DNA of 64,000 nt from Candidatus Babelota bacterium (GTDB lineage Bacteria > Babelota > Babeliae > Babelales > CAIQNR01): the NCBI GenBank assembly GCA_965658655.1, contig CBFHTA010000001.1, positions 457,005 through 521,004 of the forward strand, read 5' to 3'. The notes under the pieces are model-generated. The model worked only from the letters and a program-made list of their open reading frames with translations, was not told the DNA's origin and made no database searches. Positions 8,546-63,962 of this stretch are shown here, one piece after another (position 1 is the stretch's first letter; each line of letters begins with the position of its first letter). The translations under genes were made by a program, and so were the position numbers.

Positions 8546-9214
8546 TTATAATGTTTCTTCTTCAATACAATTATCTAAAAAACCATCTGCTAAACAATGA
8601 GAAACATCTGTATCTTTAGGAAGACTCAATAATGTGCGTATTGCGTCTTCAGTATCTTTCACATGATACTTTGCTGTTAGATGTGTTTTCGCCGAGCTTT
8701 TTTGATTATAGCGTTGTGAGCATATTTTGCATTTAAAGGGTTTTTCGTTGGTATGTATAAACTGATGTCTTTTGAGTTTGTACGGAGTAGTCCAACGTTT
8801 TAAACGTCCTGCTTCTGTCGGGCATAAATTACAACAAAGTATTGGTTTTGAATTGTCTGTAAAAATGGGTTTTTGTGCTTTGGCACTTGAGCCAGATTGT
8901 TTTTGTGCCATTTTAACAGTTGGTAGAAGATGAGTTCCTCTTTTTGATTTAGCGACTGCAGCTGCCATAATTATGGCATCCCTCTTCATGCTTGCATTGT
9001 TTTTTTGCACGGATGGTGGTGGAACAGGCGGAAGAGTTAGGGAATCACCCGAAGTGGATAGAGTAGCAGCTTTTATAGGAACAGCTAGGACGGTTTGAGA
9101 AATGTTTTCTTGAGTTGCTTTATGGGGATTGTTAAGATCAACAGCTGAATTAAAACTAAAAAGTGGAATTGCTAAAATTAATAAAGGGCTTATTAAGAGC
9201 GTTTGTTTATTCAT
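8546..9214 (-). CDS. Secreted C2H2 zinc-finger protein (2 fingers)
   Basis: Signal peptide; Pro/Ser-rich region; CNLC...LKRHQFIH-TNEKP-FKCKIC...KTHLTAKYH. Confidence 0.85.
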   Translation of the reverse strand: MNKQTLLISPLLILAIPLFSFNSAVDLNNPHKATQENISQTVLAVPIKAATLSTSGDSLTLPPVPPPSVQKNNASMKRDAIIMAAAVAKSKRGTHLLPTVKMAQKQSGSSAKAQKPIFTDNSKPILCCNLCPTEAGRLKRWTTPYKLKRHQFIHTNEKPFKCKICSQRYNQKSSAKTHLTAKYHVKDTEDAIRTLLSLPKDTDVSHCLADGFLDNCIEEETL

Positions 9215-9304
9215 AAATATTCCGTAGTAGTTGTGGTAAAAAAGAATTTTAGTTTGATTGCATAATGTACTAGAGTCAAGAAAATTTAATAAAAAGGGTG
9301 TTTT

Positions 9305-10000
9305 ATGAAGAGAGTAGTTGTACTGTCGTTGCTTGTTAACACATTTGCATATGGGTTCACTTCAGAGCCATTATCGGACACGCTTAAAAAAGAATTGGTT
9401 CAACGCAATGTTTGGAGTAGAGAATGTCCTGTTTCTATGGAGAGACTTAGGTTGTTGACTATGGCCTACATAGATTTTGATGGAAAAGAACACACTGATG
9501 GCAAAATGATTGTACTTGACGCTGTGGCAGATGATGTACTTGCTGTGTTTAAAAAACTGTATGAAATTAAATTTCCTATTGCTCGGATGGAGCTTATTAC
9601 TCAATATAATGGTGATGACGACCTTTCACTTGCAGCTAATAATACGAGTGCCTTTTGTTATCGATCCATCACCGGCGGAGGGCCTGTTTCGCTTCATGGT
9701 CTTGGAGTGGCAATAGATATTAATCCCATTCAGAATCCTTACCTTGGGTTTGGAGGAGGCTTTAAAGGGACTGTATATTCGGGGAAAGTTTTAGTTTTGC
9801 CTTCCAAGGGGGCTGACTATTTAAACCGAGCTCATGACCGTGTGGGTATGGCAGAACAAGTGGTCTCTATCTTTAAAGAACATGGTTTTACTGACTGGGG
9901 AGGCGATTGGGGAGATGGTGATCAAGGGGGCAGAATAGACTACCAGCACTTTGCTGTACCCAGAGAAAAGGCGGAGAATCTCGTAAAAATTGACAAATAA
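9305..10000 (+). CDS. M15-family peptidoglycan metallopeptidase
   Basis: Signal peptide; NTSAFCYR, SLHGLGVAIDINP, WGGDW, DYQHF. Confidence 0.88.
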   Translation: MKRVVVLSLLVNTFAYGFTSEPLSDTLKKELVQRNVWSRECPVSMERLRLLTMAYIDFDGKEHTDGKMIVLDAVADDVLAVFKKLYEIKFPIARMELITQYNGDDDLSLAANNTSAFCYRSITGGGPVSLHGLGVAIDINPIQNPYLGFGGGFKGTVYSGKVLVLPSKGADYLNRAHDRVGMAEQVVSIFKEHGFTDWGGDWGDGDQGGRIDYQHFAVPREKAENLVKIDK

Positions 10001-10017
10001 GGCCCCTCTGGTAAGCT
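9990..10017 (+). promoter_or_regulatory. rpsI promoter
   Basis: TTGACA-16 nt-TAAGCT with TCTGG immediately before the -10 box. Confidence 0.65.
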
Positions 10018-10071
10018 AGATAAACGTAAAAATCAAACTATTCAAGCTTATTTGTAAGGTAGTAAAAGTCT

Positions 10072-10665
10072 ATGGTCAAGACAAAAACAGCAGAAAAAAA
10101 ACCTGCTGCAAAAAAAACGACAGTTTCAAAAACTGTTGCTCCTAAAAAAGCGGCTCCTAAAAAAACAGCTGAACCTAAGAAGGTAGAAGCTAAAAAAGTT
10201 TCTCCGGATAAGCCAGAGACAAAGGCTGCTTCAACAGCGGATAAAGTAGTAGCAACTCCTCGTAAAAAGGGTGCTATGGGAGCTGTAATTGGTGCGGTTG
10301 GTCGTCGTAAAGCTGCGGTTGCTCGTGTATGGGTTCGTCGCGGGAAAGGCGGAGTAGCGATTAATAATCAACGTTGCGCTGACTATTTTAACACAGATGA
10401 AACTCGTACTGCTGCAGTAAAAGGTCTTGTATCTTGCGATGTAGTAAACAAATACGACGTTATTGCAAACGTACAAGGTGGTGGAAAGGTTGCTCAATCT
10501 GAAGCAGTTAACCTTGGTATTGCTCGTGCGCTTGTAAAAGAAAGCGAATCTTACAAGGCAACGTTAAGAGCAAACGGCTCTTTAACAGTTGACTCTCGTA
10601 ATAAAGAGCGTAAAAAGCCTGGTCAAAAAGGTGCTCGTGCGAAGTTCCAATTTGTAAAACGTTAA
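10072..10665 (+). CDS. rpsI: 30S ribosomal protein S9 with Lys/Ala/Pro-rich N-terminal extension
   Basis: GRRKAAVARV, GGGKVAQSEA, ERKKPG..GARAKFQFVKR. Confidence 0.95.
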   Translation: MVKTKTAEKKPAAKKTTVSKTVAPKKAAPKKTAEPKKVEAKKVSPDKPETKAASTADKVVATPRKKGAMGAVIGAVGRRKAAVARVWVRRGKGGVAINNQRCADYFNTDETRTAAVKGLVSCDVVNKYDVIANVQGGGKVAQSEAVNLGIARALVKESESYKATLRANGSLTVDSRNKERKKPGQKGARAKFQFVKR

Positions 10666-10699
10666 TCGTATATCCAAGTTATCGAAAAAGGGTTTTCGG

Positions 10700-12547
10700 G
10701 TGTGTAGTGTTGTTGGCTATATTGGCAAGCAGCAGAGTCGACAGGTAGTTTTAGATGGTTTGAAACGTCTAGAATATCGTGGATATGATTCAGCTGGATT
10801 TGCGTGTCTTGATCAAGATAGTTGTCAATTAATGTATGCCAAAGCGCCCGGAGCTCTTTCTAATTTGGTTGATATTTTTAACACCCAACCCATAAATGGA
10901 TCGGTTGGTATTGGTCATACTCGTTGGGCAACTCACGGTGTGGCGAATAAACAAAATGCGCATCCGCATTTTGACTGTCAAAAAACTATCTCTCTTGTTC
11001 ATAACGGAATCATAGAAAATCACGTCGAGTTAAAAGCTCAGCTTTCTTCTAGGGGGCATGAATTTCATTCAGACACAGATAGTGAAGTGGTTGCTCATTT
11101 GTTAGAGCAAGCTTTCTTGGAAAAACCTAAATCGGTAGTGGCAGCGGTAGAGTCGGTAGTGTCTCAACTTGCCGGTGCATATGCTTTTGTAGCGGTGCTC
11201 AAAGAGCATCCAGATATGTTGATTATTGCACGTAAGGGTTCTCCTTTGTGTGTAGGGATCGGTGAAGACGAGATGTTTGTAGCGTCAGATGTATTGGCAT
11301 TTGCGGGCAGAACGCAACGTGTTCTGTTTATGCAAGAGCAAACGTTTGCGCTGGTTTCTCGTAATAATGTTGCTGTTTATGGTTTTGACGGTAAAAAAAT
11401 TAAACACGAAATTAAAGAGCTCGATGCGCAATGGCTAGCGGCTGAAAAAGACGGTCACGAGCATTATATGCTTAAAGAGATTTATGAGCAGCGAGAAGTT
11501 ATTCACAAATCTGTTTGTTTTTATAAAACTATTAGTAGTGATATTTGGAATCATCTTGGTATTACCAAGTCGTTTGTTAAGAAAATAAAAAAAGTAGTTT
11601 TTGTGGCGTGTGGAACATCTGCGCATGCAGGGCAAATAGCACAGTATTTTTTTGAAGAAGTCTGTGGATTGCCAACACAGACAGTGCTTGCTTCTGAATT
11701 TAGGTATCGATCGTTCTTCGAAGATAAGAACACACTCTATGTTGCAATTTCTCAATCAGGAGAAACTGCAGACACACTTGAGGCTATTCGCTTTTTAAAG
11801 GAACGGAATCAAACAGTTGTAGCGCTAACTAATGTTGCTTCGAGTACCATGGTTCGTGAGTGTGATGGTTTCTTGTTAACGCAAGCTGGTCCAGAGGTTG
11901 CCGTTGCTTCTACTAAGGCATTTTCAACACAAGTTGTTGCGTTGTATTGGTTGTCTCATCGCATGGCATATGAAAACGGTAACATTACTCAAAAAGCATT
12001 TGAGCAAGCGCAAGATGATTTATTGATTGCTGCTGAGTCTTTAGAGAACGCTCTTGAGAATGTTAAACATACCATTGTGGAAACGCTAGCTCCTGAATAT
12101 GCCCCTTATGAAAAATTTATCTTTTTAGGTAGACACATCAGTTTACCGTTTGCCCAAGAGGCGGCATTAAAGCTTAAAGAGATTGCGTACGTGTTTACGC
12201 AAGCGTACCCATCGGGAGAACTTAAACACGGCCCTTTGGCTCTTATTGATGATCAAACGCCTGTTTGTTTATTCTCTCATCCAGATCCTATTATTTATCA
12301 AAAAATGTTAGCTAGTGCACAAGAAGTTAAAGCGCGTAAGGGTAAAATTATAGCATTTCTTTTTGAGGGCCAAGATGAACTTACTGCGCTTGTTGACCAT
12401 GCCATTACGTTCCCTCTTGTTGCAGGGAATCTTTCTATTCTTCCCATGACTGGTGTAATGCAAGTTCTTATGTATTATATTGCACGTATCCGTGGGTGCG
12501 AAATAGACAAACCTCGCAATCTTGCAAAATCTGTTACGGTTGAGTAA
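10700..12547 (+). CDS. glmS: Glutamine-fructose-6-phosphate aminotransferase
   Basis: N-terminal Cys; LEYRGYDSAG, GHTRWATHG, SQSGET, PRNLAKSVTVE. Confidence 0.98.
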   Translation: MCSVVGYIGKQQSRQVVLDGLKRLEYRGYDSAGFACLDQDSCQLMYAKAPGALSNLVDIFNTQPINGSVGIGHTRWATHGVANKQNAHPHFDCQKTISLVHNGIIENHVELKAQLSSRGHEFHSDTDSEVVAHLLEQAFLEKPKSVVAAVESVVSQLAGAYAFVAVLKEHPDMLIIARKGSPLCVGIGEDEMFVASDVLAFAGRTQRVLFMQEQTFALVSRNNVAVYGFDGKKIKHEIKELDAQWLAAEKDGHEHYMLKEIYEQREVIHKSVCFYKTISSDIWNHLGITKSFVKKIKKVVFVACGTSAHAGQIAQYFFEEVCGLPTQTVLASEFRYRSFFEDKNTLYVAISQSGETADTLEAIRFLKERNQTVVALTNVASSTMVRECDGFLLTQAGPEVAVASTKAFSTQVVALYWLSHRMAYENGNITQKAFEQAQDDLLIAAESLENALENVKHTIVETLAPEYAPYEKFIFLGRHISLPFAQEAALKLKEIAYVFTQAYPSGELKHGPLALIDDQTPVCLFSHPDPIIYQKMLASAQEVKARKGKIIAFLFEGQDELTALVDHAITFPLVAGNLSILPMTGVMQVLMYYIARIRGCEIDKPRNLAKSVTVE

Positions 12548-12583
12548 AAAATATTTTTTATTGTTACTAGTTTTAGGGGTTTT

Positions 12584-13843
12584 ATGAAAAAAACGTATGT
12601 TTATATTTTGTTGTCATTGTATGCTTCATTTAGTTTTTGTGCTTCTTCTGGAGTAGGTGGAAACATGTCTGAAGATCGTTTGTTCCGTATTCTCTGTTCT
12701 GTCAGTACTGATGAGAAGGCAGTGCAGACATTTCTTAATTCTGGAGTAGATGTGAATTCCAGAGACGGTTATGGCAGAACTTCGTTGTATTACGCGTGTC
12801 ATAACAAGTGTCAGGGAATGAAGGGAATGGTAGGAAAATTGATTGCTCATAATGCAGATGTAAATGTCAAAGAGAATTCTAAAGATACTCCATTGCATTA
12901 CGCATGTCATAAAGGTCATCAGGAAGCGGTATCGGCATTGATTGATAATAATGCAGAGGTAGATGCCCGTAATGCTAAAGAAAATACTCCATTACATTAC
13001 GCATGTTTTTACGGTCATCAGGAAGTGGCACAGCTCTTGATTGATAATAATGCAGAGGTAGATGCCCGTAATGCTAAAAAAGAGACTCCATTATATTATG
13101 CATGCATTAAAGGCTGTCAGGAAGTGGTAGAGGAATTGCTTGCTCATAATGCAGAGGTAAACTCAACGGATGCTTTTGGAGATACTTTATTGCATAAAGC
13201 ATGTTGTGCAGAATATAAGACTGCAGTAGAAAGCTTGCTTGCTCACAATGCAGAGATAAATGCAACGGATGCTCTTGGAGAGACTCCATTGCATAAGATA
13301 TGTTGCAAAGGAAATCTCGCTGCAATAGCATTCTTGCTTGAGAACAATGCAAATGTCAATGCGAAAGATTGTGGAGGGGAGACTCCATTGCATAAAGCAT
13401 CTTGTAATAGTGAGAGTGAAGTAGTAAGGCGCTTGCTTACTCATAATGCAGAGGTAGATGCCCAAGATTCTTCAGGTGAGACTCCATTACATAAAGCATC
13501 TTGTAATGGTCAGAGTCGAGTAGCAAGGCTTTTGCTTACTAACAATGCAGAGGTAGATGCCCGTAATACTGAAAGAGAGACTCCATTACATTACGCATCT
13601 TGTAATGGTCAGATTCGAGTAGCAAGGCTTTTGCTTACTAAAAATGCAAAGGTAGATGCCCGTAATACTCAAAGAGAGACTCCATTGCATAAAGCATGTC
13701 GTAATAGTAAGTATAGTACGGTAGATCTCTTGGTTCGTAACAATGCAGAGGTAGGTGCACAAGATTCTTCAGGTGAGATTCCATTAGATAAAGTTTCTTC
13801 TAAAGGCGATTCTCAAATGGAGTTCTTATTAACGCAGAGGTAG
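12584..13843 (+). CDS. Secreted ankyrin-repeat protein (~11 repeats)
   Basis: Signal peptide; repeated TPLHxAC..G...V..LL..NAEV. Confidence 0.95.
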   Translation: MKKTYVYILLSLYASFSFCASSGVGGNMSEDRLFRILCSVSTDEKAVQTFLNSGVDVNSRDGYGRTSLYYACHNKCQGMKGMVGKLIAHNADVNVKENSKDTPLHYACHKGHQEAVSALIDNNAEVDARNAKENTPLHYACFYGHQEVAQLLIDNNAEVDARNAKKETPLYYACIKGCQEVVEELLAHNAEVNSTDAFGDTLLHKACCAEYKTAVESLLAHNAEINATDALGETPLHKICCKGNLAAIAFLLENNANVNAKDCGGETPLHKASCNSESEVVRRLLTHNAEVDAQDSSGETPLHKASCNGQSRVARLLLTNNAEVDARNTERETPLHYASCNGQIRVARLLLTKNAKVDARNTQRETPLHKACRNSKYSTVDLLVRNNAEVGAQDSSGEIPLDKVSSKGDSQMEFLLTQR

Positions 13844-13883
13844 AGGTATAATTGTTTTTTATTGTTATGAGTTTAGGGGTTTT

Positions 13884-14828
13884 ATGAAAAAAATGTATGT
13901 TTATATTTTGTTATCATTGTGTACTTCATTCATTTTCTGTGCGTCTTCTGAAGTGGTTGGAAATGTATTCGGAGATACACTATTACATCGTTACTGTTAT
14001 AGTGGTAATAAGGAGTACGTAGAATCATTTCTTGCTAACAAACCAGCAGAAGTAAATGTTAAGAATGATAGTGCTCAAACTCCATTACATAGCGTGTGTA
14101 CTACTCATTATTGTGATGTGGCAGCGGTTTTGCTTGATTATAATGCAGAGGTAGATGCGAAAGAACATCTTGGAGATACACCATTGCATAAAGCATCTTT
14201 CAGTGGTCATAAGGATATGGCACAGCTTTTAATTGATAATAAAGCACAGATAAATATTAAGAATAATCTTGGAGAGGCTCCATTGTATTATGCATCTTGC
14301 AGTGGCCATAAGGATATCGCAGCCCTCTTGCTTGCTTATAATGCACAGATAAATATTAAGAATAATCTTGGAGATACACCATTGCATAAAGCATCTTGCA
14401 GTGGTCATAAGGATATGGCAGCCCTCTTGCTTGCTTATAATGCACAGATAAATATTAAGAATGATCTTGGAGATACACCATTGCATTATGCATCTTTCAA
14501 TGGTCATAAAGATATGGCACAGCTTTTGATTGATAATAACGCAGATAGAGAGGCACAAGATTGTTGTGGAGATACACCATTGCATAAAGTATGTTGTAAA
14601 GGCGATCAGGAGATGGCACAGCTCTTGATTGATAATAATGCAGAGGTAAATCCGAAAAATAGTCTTAAGGAAACTCCATTGCATAAAGCATATTCTAAAA
14701 GTCATGTAATAATGTCACAGCTTTTGATTGATAATAACGCAGATAGAGAGGCACAAGATGATTTTGGGAATACTCCATATCAAGCATATTGTAAGGCTCA
14801 TCATTTAGTAATAGAGCCTATTGGTTGA
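13884..14828 (+). CDS. Secreted ankyrin-repeat protein (~8-9 repeats), paralogue of the upstream gene
   Basis: Near-identical signal peptide; GDTPLH repeats. Confidence 0.95.
   Translation: MKKMYVYILLSLCTSFIFCASSEVVGNVFGDTLLHRYCYSGNKEYVESFLANKPAEVNVKNDSAQTPLHSVCTTHYCDVAAVLLDYNAEVDAKEHLGDTPLHKASFSGHKDMAQLLIDNKAQINIKNNLGEAPLYYASCSGHKDIAALLLAYNAQINIKNNLGDTPLHKASCSGHKDMAALLLAYNAQINIKNDLGDTPLHYASFNGHKDMAQLLIDNNADREAQDCCGDTPLHKVCCKGDQEMAQLLIDNNAEVNPKNSLKETPLHKAYSKSHVIMSQLLIDNNADREAQDDFGNTPYQAYCKAHHLVIEPIG
14170..14560 (+). repeat. Near-identical 99-bp coding tandem repeats (ankyrin units)
   Basis: gcacagataaatattaagaat(a/g)atcttggaga recurs at ~14244, 14343 and 14442; boundaries approximate. Confidence 0.85.
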
Positions 14829-14886
14829 TAACAATGCAGATATAAAGGTATAACTGTTTTTTATTAGTAGGAATACTGAGGGTTGT

Positions 14887-15426
14887 ATGAAAAAATTTTT
14901 AGTTTTAGTTTTATTTTTATTTAGTACCGTGCAAGCGTCTCAAATTCCTGTCAGAGGTGCATATGAATTTCGATCAAAACCAGAACTTATGCCGAGCCCA
15001 AAAACATTAACAGAAGCTGTTCGTTGGGGAACGCTAGAAGAAGTAAAAATGTTTTTGTCCTGTGGGTGGAACCCTAATGCAAGTGACAAAAATGGTAGAA
15101 CCTCTATGCACTTTGTAATTTTTAGACAAGATAATCATGCTATTTTTATTTTACAAGAACTACTTTTTGCAGGAGGGAGTCTAACGGTGCTAGATAAAAA
15201 TGAAGCGACCCCTGTACATGAAGCTCTTACCTTGGGTAATAAAAAGGCACTTAAAATATTTATAGTTTCTTATGGTTTGGTTTTTGATTCTTTATTAACT
15301 AAGAAATATCCGGTTATAGATAAAGTTGCTGTTGAATTGGGTTTTCCTCCGTCACAGGCTACGGTACAAGAGTGCTCTGCTTCTGGTTCTTTTTCAAAAA
15401 CTATAGCACGTCCAAGCCCTTTTTAA
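14887..15426 (+). CDS. Secreted ankyrin-repeat protein
   Basis: Signal peptide; GWNPNASDKNGRTSMH, ATPVHEA. Confidence 0.85.
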   Translation: MKKFLVLVLFLFSTVQASQIPVRGAYEFRSKPELMPSPKTLTEAVRWGTLEEVKMFLSCGWNPNASDKNGRTSMHFVIFRQDNHAIFILQELLFAGGSLTVLDKNEATPVHEALTLGNKKALKIFIVSYGLVFDSLLTKKYPVIDKVAVELGFPPSQATVQECSASGSFSKTIARPSPF

Positions 15427-15511
15427 TTGTGGTCTGATAGATCTTGTTTTTACTCTTTTTATTCGTTTATACTTGGCTCGATTATTAATTCATCTATAAA
15501 GGGGGACGGGG

Positions 15512-16213
15512 ATGAAAAGATTCGTATTTTTATTTTTACTTACCATTTCACTCACTGCTGTAGATCATAAAAAGGTTCCAGACATTTATGTTCACGAAGA
15601 GTCGGTAGGGTATGAGCCAGGAGAAAGAGATAGAATTGCAACGGGAAAGACAGATTGTGCAACAGCAGAGAATTTTGAGCAGCTTATGGAAAACGGGCAA
15701 TATGATTTATGTCGTGCCTATTTAGCAGGTAAAAAACCTGCAGAGATCACAGCTTTAAAATTATTTCTTCCGCGTAAACCTGGTAAGGTGTTAACCAAAC
15801 AAGAGGAAATTGAGGCTGTTCAAAAAAGATCAAAAAAAATTGATCAAATCATGGGAGAACTTTGGGGGCTTCCTTCTGGAGAAGAAGTTAATCTTGCTGA
15901 TGATGAAAAAGACTTTCTAAAAGGTGTTTGCGCAAGATTTCCTTTACATCATAGAGCATTTTTTGGAGATAAAGGAGCCGTTAATTGGTTTTTGAAACAT
16001 TATCCAGGTTATGACGTTTCAACTACTACTGTAACAGGTTATACAGCTTCTGATGTTGCTTGTCACGAGGGGTATGTATCACTTGCAAATGAACTTAAGG
16101 CGTTAACTAGTAGACCAAAGAAACAGGGAACTTTTTCAAGGCCTAAAAAACGCTTGCTCTGGATTTTTTTGTTTCTGTTTAATTGTCATCTTTTATATGC
16201 AAGTCAGGCATAA
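15512..16213 (+). CDS. Secreted protein with a degenerate ankyrin pair and hydrophobic C-terminal tail
   Basis: Signal peptide; FPLHHRAFFG..AVNWFL, GYTASDVACHEG. Confidence 0.7.
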   Translation: MKRFVFLFLLTISLTAVDHKKVPDIYVHEESVGYEPGERDRIATGKTDCATAENFEQLMENGQYDLCRAYLAGKKPAEITALKLFLPRKPGKVLTKQEEIEAVQKRSKKIDQIMGELWGLPSGEEVNLADDEKDFLKGVCARFPLHHRAFFGDKGAVNWFLKHYPGYDVSTTTVTGYTASDVACHEGYVSLANELKALTSRPKKQGTFSRPKKRLLWIFLFLFNCHLLYASQA

Positions 16214-16216
16214 AAA

Positions 16217-16238
16217 AAGGCCACATTTAAGTGGCCTT
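16217..16238. terminator. Intrinsic terminator hairpin between convergent genes
   Basis: AAGGCCAC-atttaa-GTGGCCTT with an A-run on the left (U-tail for the minus strand). Confidence 0.7.
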
Positions 16239-16242
16239 AATC

Positions 16243-16374
16243 TTATCTTCTTATATGATATCTCTGTTCGAGTTTCCTTCGAGGAGGATTCTTTTCGGTA
16301 ATAATAAAAACAAACATAAAAAACAAACTACACATGAATGCGGAGGATAACCACCTCTTGTGTTTTCGCCTCAT
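16243..16374 (-). CDS. Small basic single-TM protein (43 aa)
   Basis: MRRKHKRWLSSAFMCSLFFMFVFIITEKNPPRRKLEQRYHIRR; AAGGA RBS; terminator directly downstream. Confidence 0.5.
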   Translation of the reverse strand: MRRKHKRWLSSAFMCSLFFMFVFIITEKNPPRRKLEQRYHIRR

Positions 16375-16455
16375 ATAGTCCTTTAAATAAGGGTTACCAA
16401 ATATCAGGGGATCAAGTATGACGGATTCCCTTTAATATGTCAAAGAGCCTTAGTT

Positions 16456-17910: not shown

Positions 17911-18007
17911 GGTTAGTCCTTTTAATTAGTTCGTGACTCTTCATATCTCTTTACCGTACACTGATCCTAAAAGCGGTGTGAAGACCTTGAAGAAAGGAGA
18001 GTCGAAA

Positions 18008-18286
18008 ATGGTCATTACTAAACGGCATATGTTACGTATATTTTTCATGTTCGAAATTGTTATTTTTGCTTCGATCTATTTTTTTAGTGCTCAGGGGTTA
18101 CGTGTTCTGCAGGGCATGCAGAAAGAAAATGAGCATGTGTACCAAGAAATAACGTACCTTAAAAGTGAAATTGCCGTTTTAGAAGAAGAAGTTATCGAAT
18201 GGGAAAACAATTCTTTCTATAAAGAAAAAATTGCACGTGAAGATTTGCAGATGGCCAAAAAGGGTGATGAGGTTTATTTCTTATAA
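18008..18286 (+). CDS. ftsB: Septum formation initiator FtsB/DivIC family
   Basis: TM plus coiled coil plus EKIAREDLQMAKKGDEVY; AGGAG RBS before ATG 18008. Confidence 0.8.
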   Translation: MVITKRHMLRIFFMFEIVIFASIYFFSAQGLRVLQGMQKENEHVYQEITYLKSEIAVLEEEVIEWENNSFYKEKIAREDLQMAKKGDEVYFL

Positions 18287-18396
18287 TTTGTTTTTTGTAT
18301 TTCTCTGAGTACTGTATGGGTAGTGCATAAATTTGTGCGATAATAACAATTACGTTAACCTACCAAATTAAAACCATTTACTAAGAGAAAGAAAAA

Positions 18397-19008: not shown

Positions 19009-19038
19009 ATAAGCTTATATTTTAAAGAGCCGGCCCAA

Positions 19039-19066
19039 TTGACAAATAGAAAACATTTATTATAAT
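19039..19066 (+). promoter_or_regulatory. Consensus sigma70 promoter
   Basis: TTGACA-16 nt-TATAAT. Confidence 0.7.
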
Positions 19067-19105
19067 AAGTCTTATAGAGTTAGATTTTAATAAATGGAGG
19101 TTTCT

Positions 19106-19579: not shown

Positions 19580-19600
19580 GATTTTAAACATAAAATACTT

Positions 19601-19637: not shown

Positions 19638-19689
19638 GGTCTTCTTTTACGGTCTTTACAAAAGACTTGAATGGTAAAAGGGAATTTCA

Positions 19690-21536: not shown

Positions 21537-22154
21537 TTATTGATGTGTCTTTTCTAATCTTTTAGAAGAGGTAGATTTCATAACTTGTGAGAGACTTGGA
21601 GTCCCTTTTTTTCTTTTAAAAGATGAAGAAGTTTTTTCTTGATGCTTTAAAGTTTTTTTGTGCCTTTTAAGCGAAGAGAGTATTCCAAATGTTTGATTAC
21701 AAGGAGCACATAAATAAACTTTGCTTTTTGTATGTATCCTTATATGAATTTTAAGGGCACCTTTTCGGGCAAAGGTTTTATTACAAGTATCACAAGAAAA
21801 CGGTTTCTCACCGCTATGTTTTGATTGTGTATGAAGTTTAAGGTCACCTTTTCGGGCAAAGGTTTTATTACAAGCATCACAAGGAAACGGTTTCTCACCG
21901 CTATGTACTTCTTTTCGATGTGTCATTAACCCTTTTTCTTGTGCAAATGTTTGATTGCATTCGCTGCAGCGAGCATTGATTACTTTTTCATGTGTTCTTG
22001 TATGTCTTTCCAAAGCATTACTTGTTGTGAATATTTGACTGCAGAGATTGCAAAAAAGATCTTTAGAAAAAGTTCTGTTAGAAGATGCAGATTGAACAAT
22101 AGATGTATTTGTTAAAAATAATGCGAAAATTATAACTATTAATTTTTTATTCAT
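21537..22154 (-). CDS. Secreted C2H2 zinc-finger protein (5 fingers, KRKK NLS-like)
   Basis: Signal peptide; five Cx2Cx3Fx5Lx2Hx3-5H units with SGEKP linkers. Confidence 0.92.
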   Translation of the reverse strand: MNKKLIVIIFALFLTNTSIVQSASSNRTFSKDLFCNLCSQIFTTSNALERHTRTHEKVINARCSECNQTFAQEKGLMTHRKEVHSGEKPFPCDACNKTFARKGDLKLHTQSKHSGEKPFSCDTCNKTFARKGALKIHIRIHTKSKVYLCAPCNQTFGILSSLKRHKKTLKHQEKTSSSFKRKKGTPSLSQVMKSTSSKRLEKTHQ

Positions 22155-22289: not shown

Positions 22290-22337
22290 TAAGGACGTTA
22301 CCTTGTTCCCAACCCTTAAGAGAAAAGACTCATTATT
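22290..22337 (+). repeat. Duplicate of the lysS 3' end (copy of 21494-21541)
   Basis: 46/48 nt identical by hand alignment. Confidence 0.92.
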
Positions 22338-22950
22338 TATTTGTACTTTCTAATCTTTTGAAAGAGGTAGATTTCATAGCTTGTGAGAGACCTGGAGTTT
22401 CCTTTTTTCTTTTAAGAGATAAACCTGCTATTTCTGGATGTTGTGCATTATTGTGCCTTTGCAGCCCATAGTGTCTAGTAAATACGGCGTTGCAAAGAGC
22501 GCATAAATAAGATCTGTGTTTTTTGTGTACTTCATTTATATGTCTGTTAAGAACGTTTTTTCGGCTAAATTCTTTCTTGCAGATATTACAAGAATGGGAT
22601 GCTTTTTCGCCATGTACTTCATCTGTGTGTCTTTTAAGACCCTCTTTTCGAACAAATTTTTTTGGGCAAAAACGGCAAGAATAGGATGCTTTTTCGCCAT
22701 GTATTTCATTTGTATGTCGCTTGAGACCATATTTTTCTGTAAATGTACGTGCACATTGGGTGCAACTATAATATCCTTTTTCTTCATGTGTTTTTCTATG
22801 TTCTGTAAAATCTTTATTTGTTTTAAACATTTGATTACACGTATTGCAGACAATATCTTTAGAAAAAGCTGTGTCAGAAGATGCAGATTGAACAGTAGAT
22901 GTATTTGTTAGTAATAATCCGAAAATTATAATTATTAATTTTTTATTCAT
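22333..22950 (-). CDS. Secreted C2H2 zinc-finger protein (5 fingers, KRKK NLS-like), tandem paralogue
   Basis: Same 205-aa length, similar signal peptide and C-tail as 21537-22154; GEKAS linkers. Confidence 0.92.
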   Translation of the reverse strand: MNKKLIIIIFGLLLTNTSTVQSASSDTAFSKDIVCNTCNQMFKTNKDFTEHRKTHEEKGYYSCTQCARTFTEKYGLKRHTNEIHGEKASYSCRFCPKKFVRKEGLKRHTDEVHGEKASHSCNICKKEFSRKNVLNRHINEVHKKHRSYLCALCNAVFTRHYGLQRHNNAQHPEIAGLSLKRKKETPGLSQAMKSTSFKRLESTNK

Positions 22951-59674: not shown

Positions 59675-60118
59675 ATGAAAGAAAAATTTCCTCTAATAAT
59701 ATTGTTATGTTGTTCTATGAATATTTCTTATTCAGCAAGTGTCCCAGTTTCTATTCTTGCAAAAATAGGAGTATCATTTGGGCCGGCCGGGCAAGTAGGA
59801 GCTTTTTTTGGTCCAGTAACTTTTGTAGGTGGGTTAGCTCTTGGTAGTTTTGTAACATTATTGAAAGGGAAAAAGAGTGTTAATAATGCACAAGCTCCAG
59901 GAGTGCCGACAGTACAAGACGGGTTTGTTCCTCCAAAGAGGTGGGACGGAAAAAAACATAGACATCCGATTAATGGAAAAGTTGGCTATCCTGATAAAAA
60001 AGGTAATATATGGGTTCCTACAGGTCCTGGTCCCCTTGCGCATGGAGGTCCGCATTGGGATGTGCAGACTCCTGATGGAAGAGCTAAAAATGTTTATCCT
60101 GGTGGAAAGGTAAGATAA
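59675..60118 (+). CDS. Secreted polymorphic toxin, Ntox37-like predicted RNase domain
   Basis: Signal peptide, Gly-rich hydrophobic linker, C-terminal DGFVPPKRWDG...GYPDKKGNIWVPTG...HGGPHWDVQ...NVYPGG recalled as typical of toxin-37 domains. Confidence 0.72.
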   Translation: MKEKFPLIILLCCSMNISYSASVPVSILAKIGVSFGPAGQVGAFFGPVTFVGGLALGSFVTLLKGKKSVNNAQAPGVPTVQDGFVPPKRWDGKKHRHPINGKVGYPDKKGNIWVPTGPGPLAHGGPHWDVQTPDGRAKNVYPGGKVR

Positions 60119-60412
60119 GTGAATACTACTACTCTCATTTGTAAAGATATATTTTTTTATTCTGACTTAGACGAAGCAGTTTTTTTTGAATGGATTAAAA
60201 AAATTCCTTCTATTCAAGATTGTAAAGGTGTGGCAGATGAACTTCATTTAGATGTTCAGATAGGTATGAGTGATCATGCATTACGAAACCTTATTGCACT
60301 TTTTTCTCGTTATGCAATTGAGATGAATGATTTGAAGCAATTTGTAACGGATGAGAATAGGCAATGGTTTCAGAATGAAAAAGCGTACTGGTATTCGAAT
60401 ATTTTTCAGTAA
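60119..60412 (+). CDS. Probable cognate immunity protein
   Basis: Small acidic ORF with no signal peptide, starting immediately after the toxin stop. Confidence 0.65.
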   Translation: MNTTTLICKDIFFYSDLDEAVFFEWIKKIPSIQDCKGVADELHLDVQIGMSDHALRNLIALFSRYAIEMNDLKQFVTDENRQWFQNEKAYWYSNIFQ

Positions 60413-60472: not shown

Positions 60473-62172
60473 ATTAATTCTTGATAATTCTTTAAAAACT
60501 CTCTTCCAATTAACATGGGCAACTTCGCATTTCCTGTATTCTCAGTAAGAACCACTAGGGTTAGGGGTGGGGACCCTCTAAAAGAAAAATTTCCTGCAAA
60601 CCAACCATGTTCTAAGAACGCTTCACCTTGCTTTCTTTTACTGAGGCCACTTGTTTGAGCAGTACTCGTTTTTGCTCTAATAATAAAGTCATCTAATGTA
60701 TTAAACATTCGTGCAGTGCCTTTGGTTACAACGGCGTGCATAGTTTGTCGTAAAAAAGCGCGTGTTTCGTATTTAATCTTTAAAGGTTCATATTGAGGGG
60801 TGCTGCTTTCTATTAATCTTGTGGAAACAAGGTATCCTGTTTCTATAGAACCTATCATGCGGGCGATTTGTAAGGGTGTGGTGAGTAAAAAACTTTGGCC
60901 GATAGAGGCTGATAATGTTTCTCCGAGCCACCATCTTTCTCCTTTAGTTTCTTGTTTCCATTCACGGGTGGGGACTAAACCGGTCCGTTCAGAAAGTACG
61001 TTGCTCGTTGCTTTTCCAAATCCGAAGATCTGTGCGTATTTTGCGAGCACGTCAATATCGAGTTTTTTTGCAATTTCATAAAATAAAATATTACATGAAT
61101 TGGCAACCGCTTGTTTTGTGGTTAATTCTCCATGTCCATAAATACGAGCACATCTAAATTTACGTTTAGCGAGTGTAACATATCCTTTGCAGTCCCATGT
61201 TGAATAGGGGTCTATAATGCCAGTTTCAATAGCTGCGCTGAGTGTGACTAGTTTGAAAATCGAGCCAGGTGGATAGCTTGCATTACAAAAACGATTTAAG
61301 AATGGTTTTTGCGCTTGTAGTTCTTGCCATTGATCAGGATTAAGTGGGTTCATGAACACATTAGGGTCAAACGTTGGACGAGAAAGAACCACTCGCAAGC
61401 TGCCGTCACGTGGGTCCATTAAAATTAATGTTCCAGTTCGATCTTCAGGAAAAGTTCTTTCAGCAATTCGTTGTAGAGATAAATCAAGCGTAGTGGTAAT
61501 ATCTTTGCCGCTTAAAGTCTCTTCTGTTTCGTATTCGGCTAGATGGGTTCCTACCGAATTTATAATTCGGAGTAATGAGCCTTTTTTTCCACGCAGCTGT
61601 TCCTCGAATAATCTCTCGAGTCCCATACGGCCTTCATAGGAAGGTCCTAGGTGCCCCAGGTAACCTAATACATGGCTAGCAATAGATTTGTAGGGGTACA
61701 GTCTTTTGAACTTGGTTTCGATACTGATATTTTTTTCGTCAGAGAAAAGTTCCGCAATTTTGCTTAGCTGTTCAAAAGAAACATCAGTAGCAAGTAAGTG
61801 TTTTTTAAAGTGCTTTTCGGTATGGGTAATAAGAGATTGTTTTTCAGTGAAATCTTTTTTGGTTACTATGCCTAGTTGCTTTATAATGTTTAGTTGTTCT
61901 TGTGTTAATTTCTTTTGCCCTGTTCCTTGCCAATAGACAGCTGTGATAGGTTTATTAGTCGCCAGTATATTGCCTCTACAGTCAAGTATATTGCCTCGCA
62001 ACGATAATAAGTTTTCGGTCCGAGTAAAATTCTTTTTGCTTTGCTCAAAGAGTGTTTTGCCTTGATTGATCTGTAAATAAAAAAGACGGCCAACAATAAT
62101 ACACAAGGCCAATGTACACACTTTAAGTAAAAATAGGTTCTTTGATTCAAATGTTCTTTGGGCCGGAATCAT
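60421..62172 (-). CDS. mrdA: Class B penicillin-binding protein 2
   Basis: N-terminal TM; RGNILD; SIFK, SCN and KTS motifs. Confidence 0.9.
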   Translation of the reverse strand: MIPAQRTFESKNLFLLKVCTLALCIIVGRLFYLQINQGKTLFEQSKKNFTRTENLLSLRGNILDCRGNILATNKPITAVYWQGTGQKKLTQEQLNIIKQLGIVTKKDFTEKQSLITHTEKHFKKHLLATDVSFEQLSKIAELFSDEKNISIETKFKRLYPYKSIASHVLGYLGHLGPSYEGRMGLERLFEEQLRGKKGSLLRIINSVGTHLAEYETEETLSGKDITTTLDLSLQRIAERTFPEDRTGTLILMDPRDGSLRVVLSRPTFDPNVFMNPLNPDQWQELQAQKPFLNRFCNASYPPGSIFKLVTLSAAIETGIIDPYSTWDCKGYVTLAKRKFRCARIYGHGELTTKQAVANSCNILFYEIAKKLDIDVLAKYAQIFGFGKATSNVLSERTGLVPTREWKQETKGERWWLGETLSASIGQSFLLTTPLQIARMIGSIETGYLVSTRLIESSTPQYEPLKIKYETRAFLRQTMHAVVTKGTARMFNTLDDFIIRAKTSTAQTSGLSKRKQGEAFLEHGWFAGNFSFRGSPPLTLVVLTENTGNAKLPMLIGREFLKNYQELMELREKKKRREEKNQRV

Positions 62173-63086
62173 TCAGTGTCTGTCATATCATTAAAAGGAT
62201 GGAGGGTATCGCACATTTCTGCCAGCTGTGCAGAGGTAACATGAGTATATTTTTCTGTACTCGCTAAACTTTGATGCCCCAATAATTCTTGCACTACACG
62301 TAAGTCAGTTCCTTGATTAAGCATATGTGTTGCAAAAGAGTGACGTAATTTGTGAGGTGTTACTTTTTTACCACCTTTTAAGAATTTTCTAAACATTTCT
62401 ATGATGCGCTGTACAGAGCGAACATCGAGAGGTCCTGTTCGATAATTAACGAAAAGTTTTTCGTTCAAATTCAATGGTTTCGGACGTTCTTTTTTTAAAT
62501 ATTCTTTAATACGCTTTTGTGCTTTGCTTCCAAAGAGAACCATCCGCTCTTTGCGGCCTTTACCAGTGATTTTAATTACTTTGTTTTCAATGTCTAAGTT
62601 ACCCATGGTAATACTGCATAGCTCAGAACACCGCATTCCGCTTGCATATAAAAGTTCAAAAATAGTTTTATCTCGAATCGGTTTTTTTGACGGTAATTCA
62701 GAATCTTTCACTGTATCGAGCAGATAAAAAACTTCGTCAACACTTAAGTAAACGGGAAGTTTTTTGTCTACACGAGGGCGTTTGAGTTTGAATGAAACGT
62801 CGAGACCTACAGATCGTAAGAAACGTTCAAATGATTTAAAACACGAAATTTTTCGAGCTACCGAACTGGTATCTATTTTCTTGTAAAAAAGGCTTACAAA
62901 GTAGCGTTCAAGTGCTCGCCTTAAAACTTCTTGCTTTTTGTCGTTATTGTTGATTTGGAGCCAGAATTGGTTGAATAACTTGAGGTCGCTTTCATACGAT
63001 CTTTGAGTGTTTGTACTTAGGTTTTTTTCTACCTTTATATAGGCTAGAAAGTCTTTTTTATACTTTTCAAATGTTTTAATATTCAT
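62169..63086 (-). CDS. xerC: Tyrosine recombinase XerC/XerD
   Basis: SGMRCSE, GKGRKER, HKLRHSFATH, LLGH, EKYTH. Confidence 0.85.
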   Translation of the reverse strand: MNIKTFEKYKKDFLAYIKVEKNLSTNTQRSYESDLKLFNQFWLQINNNDKKQEVLRRALERYFVSLFYKKIDTSSVARKISCFKSFERFLRSVGLDVSFKLKRPRVDKKLPVYLSVDEVFYLLDTVKDSELPSKKPIRDKTIFELLYASGMRCSELCSITMGNLDIENKVIKITGKGRKERMVLFGSKAQKRIKEYLKKERPKPLNLNEKLFVNYRTGPLDVRSVQRIIEMFRKFLKGGKKVTPHKLRHSFATHMLNQGTDLRVVQELLGHQSLASTEKYTHVTSAQLAEMCDTLHPFNDMTDTE

Positions 63087-63254
63087 TACATTCCTTGAGC
63101 TTATTTAAGCTCAGAGTACTGAATGAGAGTTATAAGTGCAACTGTTATGATTTATAGACTTATTTAAGCTTATAAATTACAAGCAGACCCTGTTGACTAA
63201 TAGAGATTATTTGAGTAAATTATTCTTACAATAAACTTTAATAGAGAGGTTGTG

Positions 63255-63962
63255 ATGAATAAAGTATGGATGTTTGGATTACTTTTTATTTCAATAGGGC
63301 AATTGAATGGAATGGAGACTGGTTTCAATGTACTACCATTAGAAGGTCTGATAGATAAAGATGGGGCGATGTTTGGCTTAGATATGTTGAATGAAGAGGA
63401 TGCATCTCAGATTTTAACTGCGTTGGCTTCTTTTCAAGAAGTAGAGATACCTCACACTCAGCAAAGTAGTGAACAATCTTTGGTTGTAGGGGCAGTAAGT
63501 ACAGCATCAGATAAAAAGCGTAAAAGAACTCACACAGAGGAAGGATCTTATGTATGTGGAATTTGTCATAAAGGTTTTAAGAAAAAGTGTAATTTAAAAA
63601 CACATATAAGAGTTCATACGGGGGAAAAACCTTTTGTATGTGAGATTTGTGATAAAAGTTTTACGGAAAAGAGTAGTTTAAAAACACATATAAGAATTCA
63701 TACAGGGGAAAAACCTTTTGTATGTGAAATTTGTGATACAGGTTTTACGCAATCTAGTAATTTAAAAAAACATGAAAGAATCCATACAGGGGAAAGGCCT
63801 TATAGGTGTGAAATTTGTGATACAGGTTTTACGGAAAAGAGTGGTTTAACAATGCATATAAGAGTTCATACAGGTGAGAGACCTTATGAGTGTGAAATTT
63901 GTCATAGAAGTTTTAAGCAATTTGGTAATTTATCAAGACATAAAAAAGTACATGAAAAATAA
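63255..63962 (+). CDS. Secreted C2H2 zinc-finger protein (5 Kruppel-type fingers, KKRKR NLS-like, acidic N-region)
   Basis: Signal peptide MNKVWMFGLLFISIGQLNG; five 28-aa fingers with TGEKP/TGERP linkers (84-bp repeats). Confidence 0.95.
   Translation: MNKVWMFGLLFISIGQLNGMETGFNVLPLEGLIDKDGAMFGLDMLNEEDASQILTALASFQEVEIPHTQQSSEQSLVVGAVSTASDKKRKRTHTEEGSYVCGICHKGFKKKCNLKTHIRVHTGEKPFVCEICDKSFTEKSSLKTHIRIHTGEKPFVCEICDTGFTQSSNLKKHERIHTGERPYRCEICDTGFTEKSGLTMHIRVHTGERPYECEICHRSFKQFGNLSRHKKVHEK

Follow-up and report, generated by a model that had tools for sequence, protein, structure and literature searches.

Signal-like C2H2 zinc-finger proteins expanded in a Babelota genome: candidate secreted effectors directed at the host nucleus

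Why should a host-dependent marine bacterium with a 0.93 Mb genome encode several C2H2 zinc-finger proteins that begin like exported proteins? The question is raised by a stretch of 64,000 nucleotides from a Candidatus Babelota bacterium (the window), in which a sequence-only reading had proposed a dispersed family of exported, host-nucleus-targeted regulators. Our six-frame regular-expression scan of the window identified 16 canonical C-x2-C-x12-H-x3-5-H fingers within four signal-like ORFs at three loci, as that reading had described: five each in 63255-63962, 22333-22950 and 21537-22154, and one in 8546-9214 (Table 1). The four linkers that it had listed (TNEKP, SGEKP, GEKAS and TGEKP) and its three basic patches were found as well, and the fifth gene that it had thought probable is real, with a ribosome-binding site and an ATG, and is cut by the contig end. 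Two other matches of the scan, at 16155-16226 and 45555-45620, were rejected; they lie outside any finger gene and have no Pfam support.

Table 1. Features of the finger family in the window and on contig C2 (positions on contig C2 are prefixed C2).
Feature	Position	Strand	Evidence or detail
Two-finger member, 222 aa	8546..9214	-	ORF, finger scan, Pfam
Its signal-like N-terminus, residues 1-23	9146-9214		then a low-complexity S/A/P/K-rich stretch
Its long-spaced finger	8753-8833		then TNEKP linker
Its canonical finger	8663-8731		
Five-finger member, 205 aa	21537..22154	-	PF00096 77 bits
Its signal-like N-terminus	22089-22154		
Its fingers	21642-22052		SGEKP linkers
Its KRKK patch	21606-21617		in C-terminal tail
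Five-finger paralogue of 21537..22154, 205 aa	22333..22950	-	PF00096 72.7 bits
Its signal-like N-terminus	22885-22950		
Its fingers	22438-22848		HGEKAS linkers
Its KRKK patch	22402-22413		
Intergenic region, 168 bases	63087..63254	+	upstream of array
First tandem-array gene, 235 aa	63255..63962	+	PF00096 110.5 bits
Its signal-like N-terminus, residues 1-19	63255-63311		
Its acidic region, residues 20-84	63312-63506		predicted disordered
Its KKRKR patch	63513-63527		
Its five fingers	63555-63953		TGE[KR]P linkers
Start of next array copy	63972..64000	+	AAGGAGG RBS 63972-63978, ATG 63984, MNKVWM
Array continuation, 3' fragment	C2:3-134		
Array continuation, complete copy	C2:157-948		
Array continuation, complete copy	C2:970-1680		
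Array continuation, complete copy	C2:1702-2325		
Array continuation, complete copy	C2:2347-3237		
Array continuation, complete copy	C2:3259-3897		

The Pfam cut-off for zf-C2H2 (PF00096) is 25.2 bits, and it was passed by the three five-finger proteins. At E<=0.01, 42 PF00096 matches were found in the genome, all of them either at the window loci or in the part of the array that lies on contig C2; one of 14 control genomes was positive. The 32 array fingers, which are joined by TGE[KR]P linkers, all keep the residues C, C, F, H and H, and 30 of them also have the core Leu. A search of the PDB with the product of 63255..63962 gave ZNF568 as the best match (2.7e-76), followed by PRDM9, CTCF, Aart and Zif268, and the matches to DNA-bound ZNF568, PRDM9, CTCF and Zif268 span 1e-76 to 1e-22. 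AlphaFold2 predicted five beta-beta-alpha units for this product, with pLDDT above 90 in the fingers and below 50 in residues 1-96. The array fingers are classical Krueppel-type C2H2 fingers, and probably of the consensus DNA-binding type, as judged from their similarity to DNA-bound structures. Upon Pfam search, the product of 8546-9214 matched only zf-H2C2_2 (PF13465), at 30 bits, which is under the cut-off of 40. We nevertheless kept it in the family, given that its second finger is canonical, that its linker is TNEKP and that similar signal-like two-finger ORFs were found in two relatives, G009 (242 aa) and G001 (206 aa).

The paralogues 22333..22950 and 21537..22154 are 43% identical. Of the array copy that opens at ATG 63984, the first 17 bases are present before contig C1 ends. 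A further fragment and five complete copies follow on contig C2, which brings the family to about ten genes in the 0.93 Mb genome, a larger expansion than had been claimed. The tandem array breaks the assembly between contigs C1 and C2. A complete array protein consists of a signal-like N-terminus, an acidic disordered stretch, a KKRKR patch and 4-7 consensus fingers; KKRKR follows the pre-finger region in five of the six complete array copies and in the C2 fragment. The array is divergent from a XerC/D-type recombinase gene (62169-63086), and the intergenic region lies between them. Since the spacers between the array genes are only about 21 bases, this region probably contains the promoter from which the array is transcribed as a polycistronic unit; promoter-like matches in it were no more than the shuffled expectation.

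Genes of this kind in a bacterial assembly could be mis-binned or mis-assembled eukaryotic DNA, from the host or a metazoan. The best outside matches of the finger regions are indeed metazoan zinc-finger proteins (45-55% identity), and a contig end cuts a finger ORF in 11 of the 38 loci that we sampled in relatives. But the genes are intronless, the array genes have Shine-Dalgarno sites and 21-base spacers, putative bacterial-type signal peptides are fused in frame, and the GC3 of the finger genes (0.15-0.22) is below, not above, the genome mean (0.27). On the same contigs they are flanked by lysS, DJ-1, rpsI and an xerC-like gene; lysS (20028-21536) directly abuts 21537..22154, and in run X1 the latter and housekeeping genes were together on one 25-kb contig. 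Across the phylum, PF00096 was found at E<=1e-5 in 46 of 261 genomes, 29 of 145 genera and 9 of 21 families, but in none of 301 genomes from a control phylum whose genomes are similar in size, and some of the finger loci in the phylum are on contigs of 0.6-1.5 Mb. An artefact is already contradicted by gene structure, GC3, flanks and recurrence, and we give it next to no credence. The finger genes are genuine bacterial genes.

We assessed the N-termini with an in-house heuristic that combines an n-region and an h-region (score cut-off 1.9). All nine complete finger ORFs of the genome passed, as did 351 of all 821 ORFs (43%), but none of 22 cytoplasmic housekeeping proteins encoded in the window. 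With 43% of ORFs carrying one, a signal-like N-terminus is a weak discriminator in this genome, and as the roughly ten finger genes derive from about three lineages, the nine out of nine is weak on its own. N-termini of the same kind are found in the window on the LRR protein and on all four ankyrin proteins, although the first ankyrin protein, at 1.77, is just below the cut-off. All nine finger ORFs have a basic n-region and a hydrophobic core of 10-12 residues, too short for a membrane anchor, and a lipobox Cys at the end of the core was absent in all nine. A plausible cleavage site, between VQS and A, is present in the putative signals of 21537-22154 and 22333-22950; the candidate site of the array copies, between LNG and M, has Leu at position -3, which is less typical.

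In the 24 relatives, whose 38 loci were picked by finger score only, we counted 70 5'-complete ORFs with at least two fingers. Of these, 57 were signal-like at the first ATG and 65 when a downstream Met was allowed. A net acidic pre-finger region or tail was found in 57 of the 65 signal-like ORFs, and a crude basic-patch pattern in only 29. The modular design is kept across the phylum whereas the sequences are not.

If the hydrophobic N-terminus were non-functional, or the true start lay downstream of it, these proteins would be cytoplasmic regulators of the bacterium itself, acquired from a eukaryote. A Met directly after the hydrophobic segment, in 31 of the 65 from relatives and in all array copies, offers a possible alternative start, and reduced genomes have few regulators. 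However, the Shine-Dalgarno site lies 5 bases before the upstream ATG rather than in front of the internal Met. Among the paralogues, no part is better conserved than the signal-like segment, and segments of this kind are found, with unrelated sequences, in 24 genomes. Nor would a 0.93 Mb genome have much need of some ten regulators that diversify rapidly. We therefore regard this explanation as very improbable.

Export by itself would also fit proteins that stay in the envelope or periplasm, as zinc stores, nucleic-acid scavengers or surface adhesins, and never enter a host compartment. Sec-dependent routes are the only evident ones, the N-terminal feature is common to 43% of ORFs, and nucleotide import by four tandem TLC transporters implies nucleic-acid-related needs. 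Such roles leave the 4-7-finger arrays, the diversifying base-contact residues, the acidic modules and the NLS-like patches unexplained, and we consider them improbable, if less so than a role as the bacterium's own regulators.

As for the route out of the cell, the genome encodes two secretins, one GspE/PilB-type ATPase and one GspF/PilC-type protein, a set that might belong to a type IV pilus and not to a type II secretion system. The injection-system markers VirB4, FHIPEP and TolC/OEP (T4SS, T3SS and T1SS) were not found in the 95%-complete genome. DsbA and DsbB were also searched for in the genome and not found, and a DsbD-like reductant carrier is encoded at 45042-46853.

We hold it to be somewhat better than an even chance that the family consists of secreted, host-nucleus-directed DNA-binding effectors built on Krueppel-like C2H2 arrays, some of them activators. 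The N-terminal signal peptide would lead the unfolded protein via Sec into the periplasm and then be cleaved; with no DsbA or DsbB and a DsbD-like carrier, the zinc-binding cysteines may be spared there. The steps after Sec targeting, namely outer-membrane export, nuclear entry and DNA binding, are ones that we infer. Either the secretin/GspE/GspF-type machine or outer-membrane vesicles might carry the protein out of the bacterium, and since relatives grow inside the host cytoplasm, it would thereby reach the host. Host nuclear import would depend on the KKRKR or KRKK patch or on the fingers, and 2-7 fingers could read 6-21 bp of host DNA. In the product of 63255..63962, the acidic region contains 11 D/E against 1 K/R, with F, L and M interspersed, and this composition, together with the low predicted pLDDT, fits a candidate activation domain resembling viral acidic activators. 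In the array proteins, this acidic, disordered stretch with its scattered hydrophobic residues, placed between signal and fingers, would then activate transcription, and 21537-22154 and 22333-22950, which lack it, may be blockers or recruiters. Of the earlier claim of exported nuclear effectors, the part that stands is the fit of the modular design (signal-like N-terminus, acidic region, KKRKR/KRKK patch, fingers).

The claim that the family is diversifying was confirmed. Among the 32 array fingers there are 28 distinct signatures at positions -1, 2, 3 and 6, and entropy peaks at helix positions -1, 3 and 6 (2.56, 2.69 and 3.0 bits). Comparison of each finger with its nearest neighbour gave 0.62 amino-acid differences per site at contact positions and 0.20 at the others, where neighbour choice on non-helix codons lowers the distances at those codons. 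The corresponding pN/pS, 1.68 at contact positions and 0.83 elsewhere, is based on a small number of synonymous changes (11 of them at contact codons). Between 21537 and 22333, the signal-like region is identical at 20 of 24 residues and the C-terminal tail is conserved, but 16 of 20 contact positions differ. Tandem duplication, gain and loss of fingers and substitutions at -1, 2, 3 and 6 would in this way give new specificities.

C2H2 fingers can bind RNA and protein too, so exported proteins that reach the host might instead act outside its nucleus, on mitochondrial or plastid DNA, on the DNA of a co-infecting giant virus, or on RNA or host proteins. Weaker Pfam matches to RNA-binding finger types were found (zf-C2H2_jaz 53.5 bits, zf-met 59 bits), with scores far under those of PF00096 and PF13465, and a clear basic patch is present in only 29 of the 65 ORFs from relatives. 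Yet KKRKR or KRKK is conserved among the paralogues despite their diverged fingers, and the linkers and the variability at helix positions are typical of DNA-reading arrays. A cultured relative from the presumed phylum is reported to remodel the host mitochondrion and nest in it (PMC6561590). We consider action outside the nucleus unlikely, and the most probable of the alternatives weighed here.

A bolder form of the nuclear-effector reading, which we put forward only tentatively and think rather less likely to be right than wrong, is that the phylum independently built a programmable system resembling TAL effectors, with a Sec signal, an acidic activation domain, an NLS, a polydactyl array, injection-free cytoplasmic release and an arms race. 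The tandem clusters would evolve by finger shuffling and by positive selection at the base-contacting residues, against the genomes of protist hosts. Few bacterial effectors read host DNA directly, chief among them the TAL effectors. If true, this would be a second, independent solution, in which parasites capture the host's commonest DNA-reading module and turn it against the host, in a widespread phylum of protist parasites with hardly any cultured members. From the recognition code of the fingers one could then predict host target sites, and even which hosts the uncultured lineages have. The genes are short and intronless with separable modules, which makes them concrete test objects. They also let the evolution of zinc-finger gene clusters be followed in nature outside animals, and bear on how effectors could be delivered to host cells without an injection system.

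Several known systems share parts of this design. Ros/MucR proteins carry a single atypical finger in a larger globular domain, are cytoplasmic and regulate bacterial genes. They share with the present proteins a Cys2His2 zinc site in a bacterial DNA-binding protein, which here occurs as multi-finger arrays of eukaryotic type; membership was rejected, as no ROS_MUCR match was found at E<=0.01 in the four proteins. TAL effectors of Xanthomonas and Ralstonia have a secretion signal, modular repeats with few base-setting residues per repeat, NLSs and an acidic activation domain; their repeat number and specificity residues diversify quickly, and they are delivered by type III secretion. The finger family appears similar in combining a modular DNA-reading array with a putative secretion signal, NLS and acidic domain. 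But the TAL repeat has 33-35 residues where a zinc finger is found here, and the acidic domain is C-terminal in TAL effectors and N-terminal in the finger family. TAL-effector membership was likewise rejected, since Pfam found only zinc-finger families in the repeat region and no FHIPEP in the genome. The metazoan polydactyl proteins, KRAB-type clusters (ZNF568) and PRDM9, share the C-x2-C-x12-H-x3-H fingers, TGEKP linkers and tandem clusters, finger number varying between copies and variability at -1, 2, 3 and 6. The present family differs in being bacterial, intronless and polycistronic with Sec-type signal-like N-termini, and no KRAB, SCAN, BTB or SET domain was found by Pfam in the window finger proteins.

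The features of the genome agree with the label Dependentiae used in the earlier reading. Among the Dependentiae, Chromulinavorax destructans has been reported to carry signal peptides on 44% of its CDS and on 78% of its ankyrin proteins, and to bud vesicles during infection (PMC6561590). Such ankyrin proteins join a Sec signal to a eukaryote-like domain, the strategy proposed here, and the ankyrin and LRR genes of our window encode similar N-termini; ankyrin repeats, however, bind proteins, and the available part of that paper reports no DNA-reading domain and uses the word zinc once, for a transporter. Multi-finger C2H2 proteins also occur in the host-associated marine bacteria Kistimonas and Salinisphaera sp. 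G21_0. For Kistimonas, the available text notes an enrichment of zinc-finger eukaryote-like proteins in one sentence, which gives no function, architecture or expansion analysis (PMC12491435), and the C2H2-type zinc finger protein of Salinisphaera sp. G21_0 (NCBI, P0022) has no signal-like N-terminus.

Our literature search found no description of this bacterial family of signal-like multi-finger C2H2 proteins, and to that extent the suggestion of an undescribed system holds; the concept itself had a precedent. In Magnaporthe oryzae, MoHTR1, MoHTR2 and MoHTR3 are secreted proteins with a signal peptide, an NLS and a C2H2 domain that reach the host nucleus, where MoHTR1 and MoHTR2 bind promoter elements of host immunity genes (PMC10189765). 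As far as the passages of that paper at hand go, these are small secreted proteins with the same order of modules, signal peptide, NLS and C2H2, but they come from a eukaryotic producer by the ER secretory route and have a single short finger domain rather than arrays of 4-7 fingers; tandem gene arrays and acidic modules do not appear in those passages. The switching of host genes by exported multi-zinc-finger proteins, as proposed here, would be something new for bacteria, while the secreted C2H2 nuclear effector as a concept is already known from a fungus.

Our ORF listing and translation recovered the four complete finger genes (a signal-like N-terminus followed by C2H2 zinc fingers) that a sequence-only reading had placed in the window. 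Its linkers (TNEKP, SGEKP, GEKAS and TGEKP) and basic patches (KRKK twice, KKRKR once) were likewise found in the translations. A six-frame scan of the window for C-x2-4-C-x12-H-x3-5-H gave 16 fingers within the four ORFs and two extra matches elsewhere, which had no Pfam support. The three five-finger proteins matched PF00096 (zf-C2H2) with 110.5, 77 and 72.7 bits (cut-off 25.2). The other protein contained one long-spaced and one canonical finger with TNEKP between them, and its sole Pfam match was zf-H2C2_2, at 30 bits, below the cut-off of 40.

The last base of the window is the end of contig C1. An AAGGAGG site was found at 63972–63978, 3′ of the stop codon of the last complete gene, and an ATG at 63984 starts a further copy (MNKVWM) that is cut after 17 bases; this is the fifth gene that had been thought probable. 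The copies resume on contig C2, where each of the five complete ones has its own AAGGAGG site, and the series ends at a gene in convergent orientation, whose 454-aa product has a helix-turn-helix at its C-terminus. At least seven finger genes therefore form a single tandem array at which the assembly broke. In the whole genome (928,713 bases, 95% complete) we found 42 PF00096 matches at E ≤ 0.01: one in the two-finger gene, nine in the paralogous pair, five in the array gene of the window and 27 in C2:57-3888, with none outside these loci. This puts the genome-wide total at nine complete finger genes, with one or two fragments besides, so the dispersed family, proposed as at least four and probably five members, is larger once contig C2 is added.

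Finger genes and other features of the window and of contig C2
Feature	Position	Strand	Length or remark
Two-finger gene	8546–9214	−	222 aa
Finger gene of the pair	21537–22154	−	205 aa
Finger gene of the pair	22333–22950	−	205 aa
Array gene of the window	63255–63962	+	235 aa counted from ATG; GTG one codon upstream
Array copy, 3′ end only	C2:3-134		start of contig C2
Complete array copies	C2:157-948, 970-1680, 1702-2325, 2347-3237, 3259-3897		spacers of about 21 bases
Four ankyrin-repeat genes (three in tandem) and one LRR gene	12584–15426, 43813–44478, 50326–51147		
TLC family genes, four in tandem	32815–38606		447, 464, 443 and 470 aa
DsbD-like gene	45042–46853		DsbD_TM and thioredoxin domain
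Fe/Mn superoxide dismutase genes	18397–19008, 52141–52854		
Ntox37 gene and the ORF after it	59675–60412		147 and 97 aa

Four lines of evidence show that the finger genes are genuinely bacterial. Their ribosome-binding sites are of the bacterial type, they lack introns and their spacers are of 21 bases; their GC3 is 0.15–0.22 against 0.271 ± 0.046 over all CDS, which makes them even more AT-rich than the genome; their neighbours are lysS and a DJ-1 gene, the rpsI/M15-peptidase region and a XerC/D-type recombinase gene; and 14730–24000 is covered without difference by one 25-kb contig of DNA run X1, which is not independent support since X1 may be the source sample. Contamination was ruled out on these features, and that the genes are an artefact is scarcely credible. 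Over 8000–24000, contigs of two DNA runs of the same study showed no listed difference within the three finger genes, the second run being too shallow in depth for comparing gene variability. DNA runs containing this DNA carry the label marine plankton metagenome. The best outside matches of the fingers were generic metazoan proteins aligned over the fingers only, and because the finger units are of 23 residues and consensus-like, no donor can be named. Promoter and terminator scans upstream of the array and the pair gave no matches above shuffled expectation; a TATAAT-containing stretch is common to both pair genes, just upstream of each. Elsewhere on contig C1 of this genome, beyond the window, G000:C1:8623-8721 consists of 99 N, which represent either a gap in the scaffold or withheld sequence.

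The window also holds gyrB, ribosomal protein genes, Tol-Pal genes, ftsH and lon, and its four tandem TLC genes match the ATP/ADP transporter family, a local expansion of an energy-parasitism transporter. Judged by its genes, the profile is that of an energy-parasitic, host-dependent Gram-negative. In a scan of named genomes, the gyrB sequence drew just generic matches, of 43–63% identity and spread over many phyla. Two further observations concern single genes. The Ntox37 protein is signal-like with the toxin domain (5.7e-15) at its C-terminus, and the ORF directly 3′ of its gene, of 97 aa and matching no family, is a possible immunity partner. The second superoxide dismutase has a signal-like N-terminal extension of about 30 residues and may be exported.

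Alignment of the six complete array copies showed a nearly invariant N-terminus, MNKVWM[LF]GL[LF]FISIGQLNG, followed by about 65 acidic residues (11 D/E against one K/R in the copy of the window), the stretch SDKKRKRTHTE (degenerate in one of the six), and four to seven fingers with TGE[KR]P linkers and a terminal HEK. AlphaFold2 with the array alignment gave pLDDT below 50 for residues 1–96, with a single short helix at 47–58, and above 90 for five beta-beta-alpha units. The finger region matched DNA-bound ZNF568 (2.7e-76), PRDM9, CTCF, the designed Aart and Zif268. The pair proteins have no acidic stretch; their first finger lies about 10 residues past the signal-like part, and their KRKK patch is in a conserved C-terminal tail. 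No usable match was found with the pre-finger region in the protein Atlas search, nor were relatives of the array N-terminal module found in genome contigs (query, the single protein P0004) or in viral or metagenome contigs (query, alignment A1).

The repertoire was found to be diversifying, as had been proposed from the sequence. In the 32 array fingers the residues C, C, F, H and H are invariant, while the most variable helix positions by entropy are −1 (2.56 bits), 3 (2.69) and 6 (3.0), and 28 distinct signatures of the base-contacting positions −1, 2, 3 and 6 occur. In a nearest-neighbour analysis of 23 finger pairs, amino-acid differences per site were 0.62 at the contact positions (pN/pS 1.68, with only 11 synonymous changes), 0.52 at helix 1 and 5 (pN/pS 3.0) and 0.20 at other finger positions (pN/pS 0.83); neighbours were picked on non-helix codons alone, which depresses distances at those codons. 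The pair proteins are collinear and 43% identical, with 20 of 24 residues the same in the signal-like region and a conserved tail, and differ at 16 of 20 contact positions (ungapped comparison, last finger offset by one residue). Gln at −1 and Asn at 3, which favour A-rich triplets in the zinc-finger recognition code, occur in 13 and 11 of the 32 array fingers, respectively, and the array would be predicted to prefer such triplets. That the proteins act in the host on a different nucleic acid, or on a protein, is unlikely, but is the strongest of the alternatives to the reading favoured below.

A protein was called signal-like by our own heuristic when, within its first 25 residues, one or more K/R preceded a stretch of 10 residues that averaged ≥1.9 on the Kyte-Doolittle hydropathy scale. 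All nine complete finger ORFs passed, as did 351 of the 821 crudely called ORFs of the genome (43%; 297 of the 351 without a further hydrophobic helix); among 22 housekeeping proteins of the cytoplasm encoded in the window, none did. A membrane anchor was ruled out because the hydrophobic cores after the basic N-terminus are of only 10–12 residues, too short for one, and a lipoprotein because no Cys ends the core. The four ankyrin proteins and the LRR protein also have N-termini of this type, the first ankyrin protein scoring 1.77 against the cut-off of 1.9. The signal-like N-terminus is therefore a real feature of the finger proteins, yet with 43% of ORFs passing it is a mark of the presumed secretome in general and not of these proteins in particular. 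The high background matches the report on Chromulinavorax destructans, which gives signal peptides on 44% of CDS and 78% of ankyrin-repeat proteins, Sec as the only evident route, and vesicles budding during infection (PMC6561590).

A small residue-Met-[Asp/Glu/Gln/Lys] motif directly past the hydrophobic core was present in 26 of the 351 signal-like ORFs (for example at 63255–63320 of the window and C2:132679-140472), often with an acidic stretch next to it, in 9 of the 470 other ORFs, and in 5 of the 351 within a control window. Among the 65 signal-like finger proteins of relatives, 31 have it too. One possibility is a cleavage or sorting motif common to these proteins; another is that the Met was the first start of genes to which a signal peptide was later added upstream.

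Genes for two secretins (C1:179.8-184.7 kb) were found in the genome, and one gene each for a GspE/PilB-type ATPase and a GspF/PilC-type platform protein; they may form a pilus or a system for type II secretion. VirB4, FHIPEP and TolC/OEP were not found in the 95%-complete genome, nor were DsbA and DsbB. The DsbD-like membrane reductant carrier of the window, without DsbA/DsbB, suggests a periplasm with reducing power and without the usual oxidative folding pathway. Export of the finger proteins would take two steps, Sec first and then either vesicles or the secretin machine. Oxidative folding may be missing from the periplasm, which would protect the zinc-binding cysteines, and release would be straight into the host cytoplasm if growth takes place there, as in the cultured relative. 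We consider it improbable that the proteins have a periplasmic or surface role, and still less probable that they are the bacterium's own regulators.

The phylum sample comprised 261 species genomes of 0.5–1.7 Mb from one order, which agrees with the putative placement in Dependentiae taken up in the sequence-only reading. At E ≤ 1e-5, PF00096 was found in 46 of them (29/145 genera, 9/21 families) and in 0/301 genomes of a control phylum, whose sizes were 0.7–2.0 Mb among 20 genomes listed (19 of these 0.7–1.2 Mb, the small-genome control including G261 at 1.2 Mb). At E ≤ 1e-4 it was found in 12 of the 15 further genomes from this genome's own family and in 3 of 25 from the order's other families, and a search of 14 well-known genomes at E ≤ 0.01 matched one. 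Large expansions of finger genes were found in five relatives (G007, G013, G053, G133 and G043). The locus L131 (G053:C1:231000-245000), on a 643-kb contig from a different family of the phylum, holds eight signal-like finger genes in one complete tandem array, with 2–12 fingers each and a KRQKK-type patch before the first finger of every gene, and would be a better template than the broken array described here. L033 (G013:C69:126-3506), L034 and L035 encode very long finger proteins (665–1126 aa, 12 fingers at most) that start signal-like, continue with a long acidic region and end in a conserved Cys-rich sequence, CPLCGN.TETC.CE.

Among 38 loci of 24 relatives picked on finger score alone, 81 ORFs had at least two fingers; 11 were left out as 5′-cut or lacking a start codon, two of them antisense shadows. 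Of the 70 complete ORFs, 57 were signal-like from the first ATG and 65 when a downstream Met within 60 residues was allowed, and two of the remaining five fall narrowly below the threshold. The region before the fingers, or the tail, is net acidic in 57 of these 65, and 29 carry a crude basic patch. Signal-like two-finger counterparts of the window's two-finger protein occur in G009 (242 aa) and the same-genus G001 (206 aa). Pre-finger similarity at E ≤ 1e-3 linked 82 pairs within genomes and seven between genomes, six of the latter joining this genome with G001. The design is therefore a conserved one, with sequences that either turn over fast or arose repeatedly. As in the array of this genome, a contig end cuts a finger ORF at 11 of the 38 loci, which makes the copy numbers minimum values.

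With moderate confidence, we favour the view that the finger proteins are secreted DNA-binding effectors directed to the host nucleus. A signal peptide, an acidic disordered module, an NLS-like patch and a polydactyl reader would together make an externally delivered transcription activator; the array proteins would act as activators and the acid-less pair as blockers or recruiters. The repertoire of host-nucleus regulators proposed from the sequence holds in part: we observed its architecture, expansion, diversification and phylum-wide recurrence, and infer that the proteins are secreted into the host, reach its nucleus and bind DNA.

A search of the main text of open-access papers found no C2H2 effector of Dependentiae, TM6 or Babelota described, though comparative-genomics papers may already mention such proteins in their domain tables. 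Titles and abstract openings of the C2H2 papers listed for nucleomodulins, endosymbionts, Legionella and secreted bacterial proteins likewise named no bacterial C2H2 effector. Among the nearest mentions is an NCBI record from a Salinisphaera isolate (sp. G21_0) named C2H2-type zinc finger protein (P0022), which has no signal-like N-terminus. TAL effectors are a functional parallel to the proposed effectors. So are the Magnaporthe oryzae effectors MoHTR1, MoHTR2 and MoHTR3, which combine a C2H2 domain with a signal peptide and an NLS and reach the rice nucleus, and of which MoHTR1 and MoHTR2 bind immunity-gene promoters (PMC10189765). The family would belong with the host-directed DNA-binding effectors and the eukaryote-like proteins of intracellular bacteria.
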